Positions 2,091-60,119 of a stretch of DNA of 64,000 nucleotides are shown one piece after another. Both the position numbers and the translations under genes were made by a program. Position 1 is the stretch's first letter, and every line of letters starts with the position of its first letter. The stretch covers positions 83,586 to 147,585 of the forward strand of contig JBAYKO010000001.1 of assembly GCA_041664605.1 (NCBI GenBank). The letters run 5' to 3'. The notes under the pieces are model-generated. The model was not told the DNA's origin, did no database searches, and saw only the letters and a list, made by a program, of their open reading frames with translations. Origin of the DNA: Minisyncoccota bacterium (GTDB taxonomy: Bacteria > Patescibacteriota > Minisyncoccia > Phycocordibacterales > UBA9973).

Positions 2091-3167
2091 ATGGCAAAAG
2101 ACTACTACAAATTATTAGAAATAGAAAAAGGCGCTAATAAAGAAGAAATTAAAAAGGCTTTTCATAAGTTGGCTCACAAGTATCACCCTGATAAAAAGGG
2201 TGGAAATGAGGCCAAATTTAAGGAAATTAACGAGGCTTATCAAATCCTTTCAGATGACAAAAAACGTGCCGAATATGACAGATTTGGGACAACTGGAGGG
2301 GCTTCAGGCTTTCAAGGTGGTGGTTTTGGTGGCTTTCAAGGAGGTTTTGACCAAGGTGGTTTTCAGGACTTTGATTTTGGTAATTTAAACGACATTTTTT
2401 CAGAATTCTTTACTGGTGGAATGGGTAGAGGTAGGGCACAAGAAAGACGAGGTAGGGATATTTCTACCGAACTTAATATTTCTTTCTATGATTCAATTTT
2501 TGGAATAGAGAGAAATATTTTATTAACTAAGGTTTCAAAATGTGAGACTTGCAAAGGAAGTGGAGCTAAAACAGGTACTGATTTAAAAAAATGTTCTACT
2601 TGCAACGGACAAGGAAAAATTCACGAGACAAAAAGATCTTTTCTTGGTTCTTTTTCAACTGTAAAAATTTGTGAAGAGTGTGGAGGTACAGGCACAGTAC
2701 CAGTTGAAAAATGTTCTGATTGTAAAGGCAGTGGAATTGTAAAAAAACAAGAAGATATAAAAATCACAATTCCGGCTGGAATGAGAGATGGAGAAATGAT
2801 TAGAATTACTGGTGAAGGTGAAGCTATTTCAAAAGGTGCATCTGGTGATCTTTATATAAAAATAAATGTTGCGCCACATCCAACTTTCAAAAGAGAAGGG
2901 TCAAATTTGATAATGGATTTAAATTTAAAATTATCTGACGCTTTACTTGGAACAGAATATAAAATAAATACTTTGGACGGCGATATAAAAGTAAGAATCC
3001 CTGAAGGAGTTGGAATTGGAGAAGTTTTGAGAGTTAAAGAAAAAGGAGTGCCTGTTTCAAAAAACAAAAGAGGGGATTTGTTTATTAGGCTTCATATAAA
3101 AATACCAAATAAACTTTCTAAAAAAGCAAAAGAATTAGTTGAAAAAATGAAAGAAGAAGGCATCTAG
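2091..3167 (+). CDS. dnaJ: Chaperone DnaJ
   Basis: J-domain with HPD (AHKYHPDKK), G/F-rich linker, four CxxCxGxG zinc-finger repeats, C-terminal substrate-binding domain. Confidence 0.95.
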   Translation: MAKDYYKLLEIEKGANKEEIKKAFHKLAHKYHPDKKGGNEAKFKEINEAYQILSDDKKRAEYDRFGTTGGASGFQGGGFGGFQGGFDQGGFQDFDFGNLNDIFSEFFTGGMGRGRAQERRGRDISTELNISFYDSIFGIERNILLTKVSKCETCKGSGAKTGTDLKKCSTCNGQGKIHETKRSFLGSFSTVKICEECGGTGTVPVEKCSDCKGSGIVKKQEDIKITIPAGMRDGEMIRITGEGEAISKGASGDLYIKINVAPHPTFKREGSNLIMDLNLKLSDALLGTEYKINTLDGDIKVRIPEGVGIGEVLRVKEKGVPVSKNKRGDLFIRLHIKIPNKLSKKAKELVEKMKEEGI

Positions 3168-3177
3168 GAATTTTTAA

Positions 3178-3218
3178 AAGGTGCGACCTTAAAAGTTTTA
3201 CACCCAAGGTCGTTCCTT
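3178..3218 (+). repeat. 41-nt hairpin element copy 2, 10 nt after dnaJ stop
   Basis: 41/41 identical to copy 1. Confidence 0.7.
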
Positions 3219-3261
3219 AGAAAAATTTCTTTAAAATTATCAAATTTGTTAAAATATGGAC

Positions 3262-5103: not shown

Positions 5104-5107
5104 TTTT

Positions 5108-5136
5108 AAAAAACCCCGCAATTGCGGGGTTTTTTA
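5108..5136 (+). terminator. Rho-independent terminator (CCCCGCAATTGCGGGG + T7)
   Basis: Stem 5114-5129. Same stem family recurs at 5573-5588, 8959-8974 and 20877-20896. Confidence 0.85.
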
Positions 5137-5368
5137 TTTTGTTTAGGTCTTATGTTTATTATTTAATGTGTTTAATTGACAAAACAAAGAGGTCTGATAA
5201 TCTTAAATTAGAAAAGTTTTTAAAAAATTATTATGAGTCAAATGAAGTTACCAGCTTTTTTGTCAATACAATTGTTGTCAAATTTGGATACATTTGCAAT
5301 ACATCTAAAAAATGTTGCAACTCAAATAGAAGAGGACAAACTTCTAAAAACTCCAAAACAAAAACCCC

Positions 5369-5551: not shown

Positions 5552-5565
5552 TCTTTTTGTTCTTC

Positions 5566-5594
5566 TTAAAATCCCCGCAATCGCGGGGTTTTTA
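5566..5594. terminator. Bidirectional terminator (CCCCGCAATCGCGGGG) between small ORF (+) and cysS (-)
   Basis: Stem 5573-5588 with T/A runs on both sides. Confidence 0.8.
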
Positions 5595-6920
5595 AATTTT
5601 AGTAATTCTAGGTCCAGATGGAGTATCTTCTATATTGTAACCAGCAGTAGCACTAATTTGGCGAAATCTATCAGCTTCTTCCCAGTTTTTTTCTTTACGA
5701 ACTATTTCTCTTGCTTCTACTAATTTTAAAATATCTTCTGGAATTTCTAAAGTTTCTTTTTCCAACAATTTAAAACCAAAAATTTGATCAATTATTTCGA
5801 TTGTTTTATATTTTCCCTCAGCATTCTCATCTCGTAAAAGTTCCCATAGTGAAGCCAATGCTTTGGGGGTGTTTAAATCTGAATTCATAGCTTCTTTAAA
5901 TTTGTCTAAATATTTTTCATTTATTTTTCCATCATTTTTTAAATCTTTAGAAATATTTTTTAGTCTGTTGTAGGAGTTTTGAGCATCGTCTAATGAATTT
6001 TTTGAAAAATCTGTTGGTTTCCTGTAGTGTGCCGATGTAACAAAATATCTTATAATTTCACCAGAATAACTTAGAAGTATGTCTCTTATTGTTTTAAAGT
6101 TTCCAAGGCTTTTACTCATTTTTATTCCATCGACATTTACCATTCCATTGTGAATCCAGAAATTTGCCATTTTTGCACCCCAAGCAGATTCACTTTGGGC
6201 AATCTCATCTTCATGGTGGGGAAAGATCAAATCTTGTCCACCTCCGTGAATGTCAAAAGGAATTCCCAGAATACTTTCAGACATAGCAGAACATTCTATA
6301 TGCCAACCTGGTCTACCTTTGCCAAATGGGGTATCCCATTCTGGTTCATTTGGTTTTGAAAATTTCCAAAGTACAAAATCTTCCTTATTCTTTTTTTCTC
6401 TATTTTCTAGAACCCGCGCACCAGATTTTAAATTTTCAATTTTTTGGTGGGACAGTTTTCCATATTCTTTGTATTTTGAAATATCAAAGTAAATTCCATC
6501 GTCTTTTATTGTATAAGCGTATTCTTTTTCAATAAGTAAAGTTACAAGATTTATCATTTGTTTGATATATTCTGTAGCTTTTGGTTCTACATCAGGTTTT
6601 TCTACTCCAATTTTCTCATAATCTTCAATATGAGCTTTTGTATTTTTTTCTGTTAAATCTTTTGTAGTCTCATGTAATTCGCGTGCTTTATCAATTATTT
6701 TGTCGTCAATATCAGTAATATTTGAAGCAAACATTACATCATAGCCTAGAAATCTTAAATATTTTCTTAAAATATCAAAAGTAATTTTCTGTCTTGCATG
6801 GCCTAAGTGGGGGACATCGTTTACTGTTGGTCCACAAACATACATTCTAACAGCACCTTCTTTTATGGGTTTAAATTCTTCTTCTTTTTTTGTGAGAGTG
6901 TTATAGAGTTTTAGAGACAT
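5592..6920 (-). CDS. cysS: Cysteinyl-tRNA synthetase
   Basis: HIGH (PHLGHAR), KMSKS (KMSKSLGN), CGPTVND zinc-site region. Confidence 0.93.
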   Translation of the reverse strand: MSLKLYNTLTKKEEEFKPIKEGAVRMYVCGPTVNDVPHLGHARQKITFDILRKYLRFLGYDVMFASNITDIDDKIIDKARELHETTKDLTEKNTKAHIEDYEKIGVEKPDVEPKATEYIKQMINLVTLLIEKEYAYTIKDDGIYFDISKYKEYGKLSHQKIENLKSGARVLENREKKNKEDFVLWKFSKPNEPEWDTPFGKGRPGWHIECSAMSESILGIPFDIHGGGQDLIFPHHEDEIAQSESAWGAKMANFWIHNGMVNVDGIKMSKSLGNFKTIRDILLSYSGEIIRYFVTSAHYRKPTDFSKNSLDDAQNSYNRLKNISKDLKNDGKINEKYLDKFKEAMNSDLNTPKALASLWELLRDENAEGKYKTIEIIDQIFGFKLLEKETLEIPEDILKLVEAREIVRKEKNWEEADRFRQISATAGYNIEDTPSGPRITKI

Positions 6921-8938: not shown

Positions 8939-8952
8939 TAAAAATATGATTT

Positions 8953-8984
8953 CAAAAACCCCGCAATTGTGGGGTTTTGTTTTG
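8953..8984 (+). terminator. Rho-independent terminator (CCCCGCAATTGTGGGG)
   Basis: Stem 8959-8974 plus T-run. Confidence 0.8.
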
Positions 8985-9046
8985 TATTGACAGAATGTAA
9001 TTTCTTGTGCTAATCTTTAGTCAGAAATATTTTAAATGTTATTTAG

Positions 9047-9886: not shown

Positions 9887-10501
9887 TTATTGACGATTTT
9901 TTAATGCATTTTTTATTGTATCACTATCAGAATATTCAAGTTCTGTGCCAGTAGAAAGTCCACGTCCTAAACTTGAAATTTTAAAAGAATATTTTTCTTG
10001 AAGTGGTGATAACATTTTTCTTATATAGATATCTGTATGTTCGCCGTGAGGATTTAAAGACATTGCAATTATTATTTCTTTTAATCCATTTTCTTTCAAA
10101 TCCTTCTCTACTCTTTGTAACAATTCTCTAATGCGAATTCTTTTCTCTGTATCTTTTTCTGTGATTGGAACAAGTCCTCCTAATATAAAATAATTTCCAC
10201 CATAAGTTCCACTTTTTTTCATACTTTCATAATCAGCGTCTTTTTCAATAACCATAAGTAGTGATTTGTCTGTATTTTTTCCAATACATATTTCACAAAA
10301 TTCTCTATCAGGATATTCGAAGTGCTTAAAACACATTTTACATTGAGAAGTTTGTTTTTTTAATTCAGAAATTAGATGCGTGAGTTCACTCACATAATCT
10401 TTATTTGAGGATAAAAGAAAATAAACAAAACGCTTGGCTTGCCTTTCGCCAATTCCGGGGAATTTTGCAAAATATTGAGATAGTTTATCGATTGGATTCA
10501 C
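9887..10501 (-). CDS. recR: Recombination protein RecR
   Basis: HhH (FPGIGERQAKRF), C4 zinc finger (CKMCF...CEIC), Toprim domain. The ORF-track start at 10522 is a TTG inside the repeat element. A GTG at 10499-10501 directly follows the element, as in the other copies. Confidence 0.85.
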   Translation of the reverse strand: MNPIDKLSQYFAKFPGIGERQAKRFVYFLLSSNKDYVSELTHLISELKKQTSQCKMCFKHFEYPDREFCEICIGKNTDKSLLMVIEKDADYESMKKSGTYGGNYFILGGLVPITEKDTEKRIRIRELLQRVEKDLKENGLKEIIIAMSLNPHGEHTDIYIRKMLSPLQEKYSFKISSLGRGLSTGTELEYSDSDTIKNALKNRQ

Positions 10502-10645
10502 CCCATTAGAAATAGGAAACAATCAAACGACTGTTTGTTTGATTGTTTCCATAGCTTATTAATTGTTTTGATAAATTTATCGATTTCATTTTTTATATAA
10601 TTTTTATTTTAATATCTTAACTGATAGATTTCTAACGGGACTCAT
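10502..10645 (-). repeat. Start-codon-abutting inverted-repeat element, copy D (dnaB-recR spacer)
   Basis: Distal end CATGAGTCCCGTTAGAAATCT (rc of 10625-10645). Proximal end CCTATTTCTAATGGG sits immediately before the recR GTG. Internal sequence is about 80% identical to copy E. Confidence 0.75.
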
Positions 10646-10710
10646 GGCTGATTTTGTAAAATTCATTCTAAAGTTCTATAGAACTTTAGAATGAATGAAT
10701 TTATTTTCTT

Positions 10711-12105
10711 CTAGAAGTCTTCTAAACTCATACTACTACTCCCATTCATTGCTGGATTGCTTACATTGGTATTTTTTTCAACTGAAAGGAAACTTGTAGT
10801 TTTTTCATCAAAATAAAGTTCAATTTTTCCAATAGGGCCGTTTCTGTGTTTTTCTACTAGAATTTCTGCGATATTTTGTCTGTCAGAATCTTCTTTAAAT
10901 CTATCCTCTCTGTGAATAAACATAACAACATCGGCATCTTGTTCAATAGATCCAGAATCTCTCAAATCAGAGAGTTTTGGGCGTCCTCCGCGGGTTTCTA
11001 TGGCACGGGAAAGCTGGGATAGGGCAAGAACAGGGACATCAAGTTCACGAGCAAGACCTTTTAGGGATCTTGAAATTTCAGTAATTTGGTTAACCATAGA
11101 ATCATAGTTTTTACTCGTATTCATAAGTTGTAGGTAATCAACGACAATTAATCCAAGCTTATGTTCTAGTTTAAGTTTTCTGGCAATCGAACGCATTCTT
11201 GTTATTGAGTTTGAAGGGAAGTCATCGATAAAAATTGGCGCCTTAGAAAGTCTATCTAAGGAATCTCTTAATTTTTGAAATTCATGATCAGTGGAAAGTC
11301 TTCCCGTTCTTAAATTCCATGCGTTAACATGAGCTTCGGCTGCGAGCATTCTGTCTACTAATTGCTGAGCACTCATTTCAAGAGAAAAAATTCCAACTGG
11401 AATATTATATTTTGTTGCAGCAATACGAGCAATGTCTAGAGCAAGAGTAGTTTTACCAACAGATGGTCTAGCAGCTAAAATTATTAAATCAGAATTTTGG
11501 AAACCGGAAAGGATATTATCAAGATCAGGGAAGCCAGTCGGAACTCCGCGAAGTTTTCCTTTTGACTCATGAAGCATTTCGAGACGCTCCCATGCTTCAG
11601 TTAAAGTTTCTTTTATATTTATAAATTTTTGACTTTTTGGAGATGAAATAACAGAAAATATTTTTTTCTCAGCTAAATCTAAAATCTCATCAATATCGTC
11701 TTCTCCTTCTTTAAAACCAAGTTCAGAAACATAATCAGCAGCCTCTATTAAACTTCTCATTATAAATTTTTTATAAACTGTATCAGCATAATATTTTATA
11801 TTTGTAGATGCAGGAACTGTATTTGTAAGTTCTGTTAAATATGAACTCCCACCGATTTGTTCAAGCTGTTTTTTTTCTTTTAATCTAGTCGAAACAGAAA
11901 GAAGATCAATCGGGTCTCCTTTAGCTGAAAGATCGAGCATAATTTTATAAATATTTTTATGTTTTTCCGCATAAAAAGAATCAGGGAAAATAATATCACT
12001 GATTTCATTTATTGATCCTGGTCGAAGCATAATAGAACCAAGAACGGCTTTTTCAGATTCAATACTTTGAGGAGGAATTCTTAGATTTGATTTTTGCTGA
12101 ACCAT
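10711..12105 (-). CDS. dnaB: Replicative DNA helicase DnaB
   Basis: N-terminal DnaB domain, Walker A (GKTTLALDIARIAA), RecA-like core. 464 aa. Confidence 0.93.
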   Translation of the reverse strand: MVQQKSNLRIPPQSIESEKAVLGSIMLRPGSINEISDIIFPDSFYAEKHKNIYKIMLDLSAKGDPIDLLSVSTRLKEKKQLEQIGGSSYLTELTNTVPASTNIKYYADTVYKKFIMRSLIEAADYVSELGFKEGEDDIDEILDLAEKKIFSVISSPKSQKFINIKETLTEAWERLEMLHESKGKLRGVPTGFPDLDNILSGFQNSDLIILAARPSVGKTTLALDIARIAATKYNIPVGIFSLEMSAQQLVDRMLAAEAHVNAWNLRTGRLSTDHEFQKLRDSLDRLSKAPIFIDDFPSNSITRMRSIARKLKLEHKLGLIVVDYLQLMNTSKNYDSMVNQITEISRSLKGLARELDVPVLALSQLSRAIETRGGRPKLSDLRDSGSIEQDADVVMFIHREDRFKEDSDRQNIAEILVEKHRNGPIGKIELYFDEKTTSFLSVEKNTNVSNPAMNGSSSMSLEDF

Positions 12106-14785: not shown

Positions 14786-14791
14786 AACATT

Positions 14792-14935
14792 ATGAGTCCC
14801 GCCCGAAATCAATCAGTTAATATATTTAAATAAAAATTAAAATTACAATGAAATCAATAAATTTTGGAAAACAATCAATAAATTACGGAAATGCCAAAAC
14901 AGCTACTTGTTTAGGCATTTCCTATTTCTAACGGG
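14792..14935 (+). repeat. Start-codon-abutting inverted-repeat element, copy E (upstream ORF-PBP2 spacer)
   Basis: Begins 6 nt after the upstream stop codon with ATGAGTCCCGCCCGAAAT (degenerate distal repeat). Ends CCTATTTCTAACGGG directly before the PBP2 ATG. Internal hairpin GGAAATGCC...GGCATTTCC. Confidence 0.75.
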
Positions 14936-24509: not shown

Positions 24510-24550
24510 AAGGAACGATCTTGAGTGTAAAACTTTTAAGGTCGCACCTT
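24510..24550 (-). repeat. 41-nt hairpin element copy 3 (inverted orientation), 22 nt upstream of ftsW ATG
   Basis: Reverse complement matches copies 1/2 at 38/41 positions (CACTCAAGATCG vs CACCCAAGGTCG). Confidence 0.65.
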
Positions 24551-31889: not shown

Positions 31890-32015
31890 CCCATTAGAAG
31901 TAGATCGCGATCAATTCACGCATCTGGTTAATTAGGTTATTAATATTTATTATATTTGATTTCATAATTATTGTTTATTGTTTAAATTGCGATCGCGACT
32001 TCTAACGGGATTCAT
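31890..32015 (-). repeat. Start-codon-abutting inverted-repeat element, copy C (ctpA-rplI intercistronic spacer)
   Basis: Distal ATGAATCCCGTTAGAAGTCGCGATCGC and proximal GATCGCGATCTACTTCTAATGGG give an extended inverted repeat of about 25 nt including GATCGCGATC palindromes. It abuts the rplI ATG and begins 10 nt after the ctpA stop. Confidence 0.75.
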
Positions 32016-34756: not shown

Positions 34757-35099
34757 AGCAAAAAGTTAATTGATTAAAGATTTATATTATTTAAGAAATT
34801 TAAAAACCCCTCAAATGAGGGGTTTTTGTTTTTGCCGGTTCTTGAGCCACTGGCTTATTGGGCTCTTCTGACGCGGCTGCCGGGTTTTTTAAATCAAAGA
34901 TGCATTTTTTGTCATTGTCGCTCGTTTCATAATGTAGCATTTTTTTGTTAAACAATCCGTGAATGAACTTATTTATTAATGTGTATATCTTAGCATATTG
35001 AAAATATTTGTCAAGCATTTTTATAATAAATATCTATTTTTAAAAAATCCTTATAAAATAATGATTTTTTACTATTCCCTATCACTTAAAAACTATAAC

Positions 35100-35660: not shown

Positions 35661-35763
35661 CCCATTAGAAATAGTTTATTTAAAACAAACTATATTTTTA
35701 CTCTGATAATTTAATCGCCTTTATTTTTAAAATTTTATTCCGCTAATTTCTAACGGGACAAGT
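35661..35763 (-). repeat. Start-codon-abutting inverted-repeat element, copy B (upstream of C39-like peptidase)
   Basis: Distal CTTGTCCCGTTAGAAATTAG (lacks the ATG). Proximal hairpin ATAGTTT...AAACTAT followed by TTTCTAATGGG then ATGATG. Confidence 0.7.
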
Positions 35764-58441: not shown

Positions 58442-58465
58442 TGCCTGAAATTTCATATTTTAAAA

Positions 58466-58494
58466 AACCACCCAATTGGGTGGTTTTTTATTTA
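58466..58494 (+). terminator. Rho-independent terminator (CCACCCAATTGGGTGG + T-run)
   Basis: Stem 58468-58483. Same family at 59099-59114. Confidence 0.8.
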
Positions 58495-59081: not shown

Positions 59082-59092
59082 AAAGTTCTTTT

Positions 59093-59120
59093 AAAAAACC
59101 ACCCGATCGGGTGGTTTTTA
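59093..59120. terminator. Bidirectional terminator (CCACCCGATCGGGTGG)
   Basis: Stem 59099-59114. Confidence 0.8.
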
Positions 59121-60119
59121 TTTTTCTTCTAAAATTTTTACAAGGCTATCTGAAAATTGTTTTATAGAATTATCGTCGTATAGAGTAATTGTAAATACTT
59201 TCTTTTTGGATTTTTCTCCACCCGAGGCGGATCCGCCTAAAGCGGAAAATTTCTTTATATTTGCTTTTATTGTCTTTTCATCAACCAAATCAGTTTTTGT
59301 CAGTAAAATTATTTCTTCTTTTTCTACAAGATCCTCCCCGTATTTTTCTAACTCTTTTCTAATTTGTTTATAGATTGCAACCATATCCTCTTTTTCAAAA
59401 GAAATTAGATGAATTAACATTTTTGTTCTTTTTATGTGTTTTAAAAATTTTGTTCCAAGTCCTTTTCCTTCGGATGCTCCTTCAATAAGTCCTGGAATAT
59501 CAGCAATTACAAAACCATAAAAACTCCCTAAATTTGGATCAAGTGTTGTAAATTGATAACTTCCAATTTTTGCCTTCGCATTGGTTAAAGAATTAAGTAA
59601 ACTTGATTTTCCAGCATTAGGAAGCCCGATCAAACCAATATCAGCGAAAAGTTGGAGTTCTATAAAAAATTCAGCATCATCCCCAGGTTTCCCAAATGTG
59701 CACTCTTTTGGTGTTGTATTAGTAGAACTTTTAAAATGCTCATTCCCTAGTCCACCATTTCCACCCTCGAGAAGTAGTTCTCTTTGTCCTTCTTTGACTA
59801 AAGAAATTACTTTATCAGTTTTTAAATTCGTTACTATTGATCCAATTGGAAGTTCTATAATACAGTCCTCTCCATTTGCTCCGTGAATATTATTACTTCC
59901 CCCATCTTCTCCTCTTTCGGCTATAAATTCTTTCTGGTTTTTATACTTAGCAAGAATATAAACATCTCTTATTGCTTCTACATAAACGTTCCCACCTCTA
60001 CCTGCATTTCCACCACCTGGACCCATTAAAGGCTTTCCCTTCTCATGGCGCCATCTAACAACGCCGTTTCCACCGTCGCCTGCCTTTGCATATATTTTAA
60101 TTTCATCTGTAAAAGCCAT
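59118..60119 (-). CDS. obg: GTPase Obg
   Basis: Obg fold (GGNGGRGGNVY glycine-rich N-domain), G1 GLPNAGKSSLL, G3 DIPG, G4 TKTD. Confidence 0.92.
   Translation of the reverse strand: MAFTDEIKIYAKAGDGGNGVVRWRHEKGKPLMGPGGGNAGRGGNVYVEAIRDVYILAKYKNQKEFIAERGEDGGSNNIHGANGEDCIIELPIGSIVTNLKTDKVISLVKEGQRELLLEGGNGGLGNEHFKSSTNTTPKECTFGKPGDDAEFFIELQLFADIGLIGLPNAGKSSLLNSLTNAKAKIGSYQFTTLDPNLGSFYGFVIADIPGLIEGASEGKGLGTKFLKHIKRTKMLIHLISFEKEDMVAIYKQIRKELEKYGEDLVEKEEIILLTKTDLVDEKTIKANIKKFSALGGSASGGEKSKKKVFTITLYDDNSIKQFSDSLVKILEEK

Follow-up and report, generated by a model that had tools for sequence, protein, structure and literature searches.

Several described systems share part of what is found at the locus analysed here. 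The Correia elements (CREE) of Neisseria resemble the present family in being non-coding, multi-copy sequences of ~100–150 bp with terminal inverted repeats and flanking direct repeats, which are inserted beside genes and co-transcribed with them, which allows the repeats to pair into an mRNA stem. Correia stems are cleaved by RNase III and alter how the adjacent gene is expressed. These elements duplicate the dinucleotide TA and have no known matching autonomous element, whereas here the ATGNN of a start codon is duplicated, not a single base separates the element from the host start codon, and a long form encodes a GIY-YIG nuclease rather than a DDE transposase. The long form in turn resembles the free-standing GIY-YIG homing genes of phage T4 (seg) and I-TevI, small selfish genes that are wedged between host genes and overlap their start and stop signals. 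Homing genes have no terminal inverted repeats, leave no target duplication and spread by break repair at the same locus of a naive allele. In contrast, the family here has repeats, ATGNN direct repeats, many unrelated host genes and short non-coding derivatives, and the first three of these features argue against spread by same-locus homing.

Other comparisons are more partial. The UPF0213/COG2827 proteins (1ZG2, Bacillus halodurans BH0048; Slx1-like URI domain) have the same domain and size class as the nuclease of the long form, and their genes are regarded as ordinary and single-copy, with a role that is unknown or in repair; we know of no description of repeats, a duplication or a start-codon position for them. 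Rickettsia palindromic elements (RPE) are likewise short and palindromic, are tolerated inside genes or at their edges and mislead the calling of open reading frames (ORFs), but they lie in frame and become part of the translated host product. Here the element lies ahead of the first codon of the host protein, and most reading frames across it are closed: at the locus under study, homologues of the host protein RecR lack the extension, and reading from the upstream ATG gives 13 codons before a stop. Integron attC sites and IS200/IS605 ends share with the family a strand-specific hairpin, pairing on one strand and a tolerance of wobble-type mismatches. The element here carries neither an integrase nor a HUH transposase, and IS200/IS605 elements leave no duplication and lack terminal inverted repeats. 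An attC assignment was considered and dropped, the core motifs being in the opposite order. No published description of such an element was found in the literature searched, whose coverage excluded most subscription journals. As far as we found, what is newly linked is a minimal GIY-YIG gene bounded by inverted repeats with a base-precise residence at start codons accompanied by duplication, as well as short non-coding derivatives before essential genes in very small genomes that hardly use Shine–Dalgarno (SD) sequences.

The window, by which we mean the whole 64,000-nt stretch of DNA that was analysed, contains one such short derivative, copy D, and the sequence confirms that it is located between dnaB and recR, where the first-pass annotation had placed it. 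The features of this junction are as follows:

10711-12105, minus strand: dnaB, the upstream neighbour, with its TAG at 10711-10713
10661-10696, minus strand: perfect 36-nt palindrome ATTCATTCTAAAGTTCTA/TAGAACTTTAGAATGAAT, between the dnaB stop and copy D and outside the element
10502-10645, minus strand: element copy D, a short non-coding (MITE-like) derivative, counted with its upstream ATGAGT hexamer
10640-10645, minus strand: hexamer ATGAGT on the upstream side, resembling a start codon; in the family this position has the first of the two host ATGNN copies, followed by T
10628-10639, minus strand: left terminal inverted repeat CCCGTTAGAAAT
10604-10645, minus strand: short ORF from the upstream ATG, 13 codons then a stop, reading the left repeat in the nuclease frame of the full element
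10515-10550, minus strand: inner 14-bp hairpin GGAAACAATCAAAC...GTTTGATTGTTTCC
10506-10589, minus strand: internal 27-codon ORF MKSINLSKQLISYGNNQTNSRLIVSYF, which stops at the TAA within the right repeat, 4 nt before the recR GTG
10502-10513, minus strand: right terminal inverted repeat ATTTCTAATGGG, whose T forms a G-U wobble with the left repeat
9887-10501, minus strand: recR, 204 codons, with its GTG start at 10499-10501

Copy D matches the family profile with an nhmmer E-value of 2.6e-33, and both of its terminal repeats are intact, as had been read from the letters alone. The distal 21-mer CATGAGTCCCGTTAGAAATCT lies at 10626-10646 on the minus strand and has one further exact match in the window, at 42422-42442, with 0 expected, and the proximal 18-mer TTTCCTATTTCTAATGGG lies at 10502-10519. 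The inverted repeats are 12 bp long with one G-T pair, and pairing runs 1–2 bp into the flanks. Two details of the earlier description changed. The element was said to fill the dnaB–recR spacer, but it occupies 145 of the 209 nt separating the dnaB stop from the recR GTG; and the perfect palindrome described before it is present, though with a length of 36 nt rather than 30. By its structure copy D would be classed as a MITE, with the Neisseria Correia element as the closest functional analogue known to us: it is 145 nt long, contains short ORFs only, is one of five copies in the 64 kb, has terminal inverted repeats and has a longer coding counterpart with the same ends (units of ~278 bp with a GIY-YIG ORF).

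All five copies in the window are recovered by the nhmmer profile (E 2.6e-33 to 1.2e-17), and each has its terminal GGG immediately before a start codon, every time that of a different gene. Counting both strands, there are nine occurrences of the 12-mer CCCRTTAGAAAT where 1.1 are expected: four pairs that face each other and one single end, belonging to copy A. The other four copies are:

14791-14935, plus strand: copy A, abutting the ATG of a penicillin-binding transpeptidase gene; degenerate left repeat CCCGCCCGAAAT
31890-32015, minus strand: copy B, abutting the ATG of rplI (ribosomal protein L9); compensated repeat variant AGAAGT/ACTTCT
35661-35757, minus strand: copy C, abutting the ATG of a C39 peptidase gene; 5′ flank ACTTGT rather than ATGNNT
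42317-42441, minus strand: copy E, abutting the ATG of a peptide chain release factor gene; ATGAGT on both sides

At copy B, the Pfam N-terminal domain of L9 aligns from residue 1, showing that the ATG after GGG is the true start. Copy D has diverged from the others, with a best identity of 74% (to copy E), which marks it as an old non-autonomous copy. Copies A, D and E all carry the upstream hexamer ATGAGT (at 14791, 10640 and 42436), while the first six bases of the respective host genes are ATGAGA, GTGAAT and ATGAGT, a hint that the hexamer on the upstream side may travel with the element or be homogenised between copies. A weak partial match to the 3′-end of the element (TTTGCTATACCTAATGGG; nhmmer E 0.26) was also seen at 44876-44937, directly after a GC-rich hairpin and followed by GTAAAT, and could be a solo remnant or a chance match.

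The same ends bound a longer, coding element in other genomes. The full unit measures ~278 bp (275–281 nt) and consists of 12–14-bp terminal inverted repeats, CCCGTTAGARAT...ATYTCTAACGGG, around one GIY-YIG gene of 86–95 aa; in copies of 278–281 nt the complete small ORF between the repeats matches PF01541 with E-values of 1e-17 to 2e-18. The reading frame takes in the repeats at both ends. It runs from the upstream ATG through the left repeat, read as M-x-PVR[D/N], into the nuclease, and the right repeat supplies the last nuclease codons, RFL[S/F]LTG, with the TGA of gggATGA as a stop that overlaps the regenerated host ATG. In two full-length loci (L117 and L118) the next gene starts 4 nt before the nuclease stop, in an ATGA overlap. 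A protein search returned 5325 relatives, and among the best 120 of these, 70 start with MNPVRD and 89 end with RFLSLTG, indicating that gene callers begin at the duplicated upstream ATG and stop directly past the right repeat. A scan of metagenomes yielded 78 full-length units, mostly of 275 or 278 nt, of which 55 have an ATG and a long ORF after them. Among these full-length copies, 44 of 48 have the same NN after ATG on either side, and 29 of 49 have a frame that opens at the upstream ATG and stays open across the unit as far as the xTGA overlap. Ten genes downstream of full-length units are mutually unrelated and include a class II aminoacyl-tRNA synthetase, SecA, YchF, Nramp and glycosyltransferases. 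In two further loci (L041 and L083) a right-repeat/left-repeat junction is found where the nuclease ORF ends.

Copy D is homologous to such full-length elements (for example L117) at both ends and in the subterminal ACGGAAAC/GTTTCC repeat, and ACGGAAAC, which is conserved inside the short copies, corresponds to the DLRKR codons of the nuclease ORF. The inner hairpin of copy D is the remnant of the full element's long-range inverted repeat, formed by the DLRKR and RFL codons. The GIY-YIG catalytic domain itself is present in the long relatives and absent from copy D, and the 64-kb window holds no full-length GIY-YIG copy, as tblastn matches there were confined to the repeats. A transposase of the DDE, HUH, serine or tyrosine class was not found in the long form, whose only ORF is the PF01541 one, with no other family matched. 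The best NCBIfam match of the nuclease is to TIGR01453 (group I intron endonuclease), at 29 bits against a cut-off of 56, and the only solved relative found by sequence is the UPF0213 protein 1ZG2 (E 5e-4).

To describe the family more widely, we surveyed one genome per species by scanning for the 3′-end motif, which gave at least 116 stretches; the conservation of that motif among them is therefore by construction. The stretches are mostly from Patescibacteria among the matches listed, with a variant in some Thermodesulfobacteriota and Omnitrophota metagenome-assembled genomes. The proportions that follow likewise refer to the matches listed. Among 116 elements with both repeats, an ATG follows directly in 92, and a start codon with an ORF of at least 50 codons follows directly in 91. 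In 68 of these 91 short copies a second ATG stands upstream, at −6 to −4, and the NN after ATG is the same on both sides in 63 of the 68, whereas 2000 shuffles gave a mean of 26.7 and a maximum of 39. This identity indicates a duplication of ATGNN at the host start codon. Copy D is among the exceptions, its ATGAG matching the host GTGAA at 3 of 5 positions. As a crude neutral expectation from the same loci, ~27% of ATGNR sites outside ORF bodies lie at predicted starts, compared with ~95% of the elements. At the fifth target base, ATGN[R], 64 of 65 distinct copies have a purine, reflecting a preferred type of target or else selection for a base that can pair with the AUG's U; by our own tally, ~42% of window genes have a pyrimidine at that base. 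Tandem copies occur (L037 and L090), as does a short subfamily whose interior is inverted relative to the host gene. In a check for carriage by phage, the two-repeat pattern had no match in viral contigs.

Some members of the survey depart from the usual arrangement. A 96-nt copy (L015, 991-1087) has ATGGAT on one side and, on the other, a 128-codon open frame with no new start codon, and may be an in-frame insertion just behind a start codon. The variant outside Patescibacteria (L020, L027, L047, L060, L061, L063, L085 and L096, from Thermodesulfobacteriota and Omnitrophota), and the same longer-repeat form in L170, L190, L196, L199 and L202, has TTCAC or TTTAC plus CCCGTTAGARAT at one end and ATYTCTAACGGG plus GTGAA or GTAAA at the other, such that the GTGAA flank belongs to the inverted repeat. 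This longer-repeat variant is not located at start codons.

Our preferred reading, to which we assign a probability of roughly 0.8, is that a very small mobile element, widespread in Patescibacteria, gave rise to copy D, which is old, has an internal deletion and is non-autonomous. In the intact element the upstream duplicated ATG could start the nuclease frame through the left repeat, and the right repeat would encode the nuclease C-terminus (FL[S/F]LTG), with the TGA stop overlapping the regenerated host ATG. Copy D would have lost the nuclease gene while retaining the two repeats and the subterminal hairpin. It would have been inserted at the recR start, in a formerly tight dnaB–recR junction, leaving recR to be translated from the GTG after the right repeat. 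The GIY-YIG protein may be what moves the element. Translation of the host gene would be kept by direct initiation beside the stem, by termination and reinitiation after short ORFs, or by processing of the stem, and these routes are plausible in an organism that hardly uses SD sites and has many leaderless genes.

The insertion step can be compared with relatives in which the junction is empty. There, dnaB and recR are separated by 3 nt (TAA agt ATGAACCCT, L122) or 6 nt (L124) and recR starts with ATGAAC, a tight arrangement that identifies copy D as an insertion at the start codon. From the family and these empty sites, copy D appears to have entered the recR start in this lineage. The empty-site relatives share just 61–64% RecR identity. 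A near-identical contig from another sample (L205) has copy D, with one SNP in 271 nt, and as the sole contig of its kind it provides no filled/empty polymorphism. One relative (L123, 429-571) has a 143-nt dnaB–recR spacer with no trace of the element.

What moves the element is less secure than the points that the sequences show directly, namely the identity of copy D and its place in the family, the ATGNN duplication, the association with start codons, the link to the GIY-YIG gene, the recR start and the co-variation of the repeats. The preference for start codons is strong, while its mechanism is at present a proposal. It is possible, though we hold this only tentatively, that the ~278-bp unit represents a new class of bacterial transposable element and is smaller than any other autonomous one known. 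On this proposal the 86–95-aa GIY-YIG nuclease mobilises the unit into start codons and co-opts the host start signal, often a leaderless 5′ AUG. Translation is returned through the ATGA overlap, and the mRNA stem then becomes indispensable to the host gene. Such dependence of the host on the stem would account for the persistence of decayed copies, D among them, in streamlined genomes, and if the nuclease drives movement, it would represent a new transposition chemistry and a record-small mobile element. A competing account, which we find unlikely though it deserves weight, accepts the family as real and assigns its movement to an unlinked transposase or recombinase or to host recombination, with the nuclease as cargo or as a homing enzyme acting on alleles only. 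To our knowledge no GIY-YIG nuclease is a transposase, nor do we know of GIY-YIG homing enzymes that leave a 5-bp duplication. The direct repeats could come from site-specific recombination at a short shared core, given that copies A, D and E share ATGAGT while their hosts differ, and the window has no full-length copy. This account fits poorly with repeats that lie inside the nuclease's reading frame at both ends, with a nearly constant length of 275–278 bp, and with thousands of copies in different contexts in which the nuclease is the unit's only ORF.

The repeats also have properties expected of a paired structure. Copy D folds into a 13-bp outer stem and the 14-bp inner hairpin at −37.2 kcal/mol (z = −5.2). 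For the stem count we took 65 distinct repeat pairs, all from copies located at start codons: pairing holds in 93.4% of cells, and seven pairs are altered on both sides (47 cells), which none of 500 shuffles matched. As a control, sliding the partners by 1–3 columns left <47% paired. Between the base that precedes the left repeat and the initial base of the start codon, the pair is UA in 60 cases, CG in 3 and UG in 1, and the single UG pair is that of copy D, in which ATG has turned into GTG. The base opposite the U of AUG gives 48 A-U pairs, 16 G-U and 1 other. At the fourth stem pair, copies at start codons show 9 G-U and no A-C, and in general their G-T wobbles fall on the sense strand only, whereas two full-length units off start codons (L136 and L154) have A-C instead of G-U at that pair. 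Wobbles restricted to one strand suggest that selection acts on the sense transcript or else on a single strand of the DNA, and we infer that the repeats act as a stem in one of these. The co-variation can also stem from recognition of both ends by a protein. A C-to-T change in the right repeat of copy D (10498-10506), which is also seen in copies B and C, creates a two-codon ORF overlapping the host start (AUG-GGG-UGA in D, AUG-GGA-UGA in B and C), and this change could have been selected for reinitiation rather than for G-U pairing.

The translation context of the organism bears on how a stem beside a start codon would be accommodated. An SD-like motif precedes 2 of 50 long window ORFs, and a −10 box (often TGnTATAAT) lies 6–8 nt ahead of the ATG in 12 of 50. 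The same −10 spacing is found before the upstream ATG in 30 of 68 short copies among the matches listed, 19 of them with an extended TG, and an SD-like motif in 3 of these 68. This spacing and the scarcity of SD motifs make many target genes look leaderless, with the element becoming the 5′-end of the mRNA, and the source organism appears to rely largely on leaderless or SD-independent initiation. A ribosome crossing the right repeat either ends at most 4 nt from the host start (at TAA, or at TGA if the start is ATGA) or enters the host gene. In 40 of 91 short copies the right-repeat TAA closes an ORF that begins with ATG and has 10 or more codons, compared with 7 of 91 in each other frame, again among the matches listed. 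Copy D has the 13-codon ORF from the upstream ATG, the 27-codon ORF to the TAA and the two-codon AUG-GGG-UGA overlapping the GTG. A conserved peptide product of the internal ORF was considered and rejected, the peptides being diverse save for residues fixed by conserved nucleotides; if anything, the act of translation rather than the peptide would matter. An internal promoter for recR in copy D was also rejected, with one sigma-70-like match against 1.7 expected from shuffles and no conservation of this match in the other copies. If the stem matters for translation, the family offers a natural handle on how leaderless or SD-less initiation copes with structure beside an AUG.

These same properties could be read as those of a host cis-regulatory leader RNA (a riboswitch, an attenuator or a translational operator) placed before co-regulated genes, rather than of mobile DNA. 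The strong conserved stem with its sense-strand G-U wobbles and compensatory changes would suit such a leader, as would the terminator-like inner hairpin followed by a U-rich tract and, in those 40 of the 91 listed copies, the short ORF that passes through the hairpin to end 4 nt before the start codon. We nevertheless consider a leader RNA improbable, since the downstream genes are functionally unrelated, ATGNN duplications flank the element, in one subfamily the interior is turned round with respect to the host gene, tandem copies exist, the sequence is a derivative of a GIY-YIG gene that has these same ends, and relatives lack the element at recR. Nor is there a match to an Rfam family: at the gathering score the whole window gave two tRNAs only, and at E up to 1 the region 10400-10800 gave only matches at chance level. 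Some copies of what we take to be a mobile element may secondarily have been co-opted as regulatory leaders.

The presence of copy D has a direct consequence for the annotation of recR. The ORF list gives recR as 9887-10522, 211 aa, and its TTG start at 10520-10522 falls within copy D, in accordance with the original reading of the sequence. That reading had also placed a GTG at 10499-10501 directly after the GGG at 10502-10504, like the ATG of the other copies, and this arrangement is confirmed. It further proposed that recR starts MNPIDKL, to be checked against the N-termini of RecR relatives. We compared the best 120 homologues, from Nomurabacteria and other Paceibacteria: these start M(N/D)PI(D/E)KL, generally as MNPI(D/E)KL or something very similar, a length of exactly 204 aa is shared by 77, and an MFPISNG-like extension is present in none of the 120. 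On these sequence comparisons and the empty junctions of relatives, recR begins at the GTG right after copy D. The competing idea, that the TTG at 10520-10522 is the true start and the right repeat encodes a genuine N-terminal extension, MFPISNGV, has in its favour that the frame is open and that some pipelines call the 211-aa form (P0243). It is very improbable in view of the homologues and of the FPISNG codons, which are simply the right terminal repeat read in frame, with the same repeat preceding four unrelated window genes. The same artefact is seen at copy E, where the listed start of the release factor ORF (41342-42409) is an ATG within the element, producing a false 31-codon extension that ends in FRFPISNG.

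Public annotations of this RecR protein are themselves divided, with JGI and NCBI calling 204 aa (GTG) and ENA/Logan 211 aa (TTG). The database entry that is 100% identical is the JGI 204-aa call starting at the GTG codon, and its 90% cluster also holds the NCBI 204-aa call and the ENA/Logan 211-aa call. The correction of the recR start is therefore sound but ordinary, being already in some databases, and the main interest lies in the element family rather than in this correction. The repeat family systematically misleads start-codon calling in Patescibacteria, here giving false N-terminal extensions to both recR and the release factor gene.

Finally, the notion that copy D simply terminates dnaB or represents a generic palindromic unit of the REP type, with no relation to the start-codon position of the other copies, can draw on the two terminator-like hairpins in the spacer but has a negligible chance of being correct, as copy D aligns end to end with the four other copies, the repeats and subterminal hairpin are common to all, and terminators in this genome are typically GC-rich hairpins that belong to another family. 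The 36-nt palindrome at 10661-10696 occurs once in the window and is AT-rich, unlike those GC-rich terminators; it may be the dnaB terminator or a stabilising hairpin, with an operator or a remnant as alternatives. GC-rich hairpins followed by T-runs (AAAAACCCCGCAATTGCGGGGTTTTT) are found at 5104-5140, 5563-5599, 8949-8985, 34797-34833, 58458-58494, 59089-59125 and other positions, and are probably the genome's standard intrinsic terminators. Another repeat of 89 nt, unrelated to the start-codon element, lies at gene ends: its copies at 1011-1099 and 3140-3228 share 84% identity and contain GGTGCGACCTTAAAAG...AAGGTCG, with a similar sequence near 24540.
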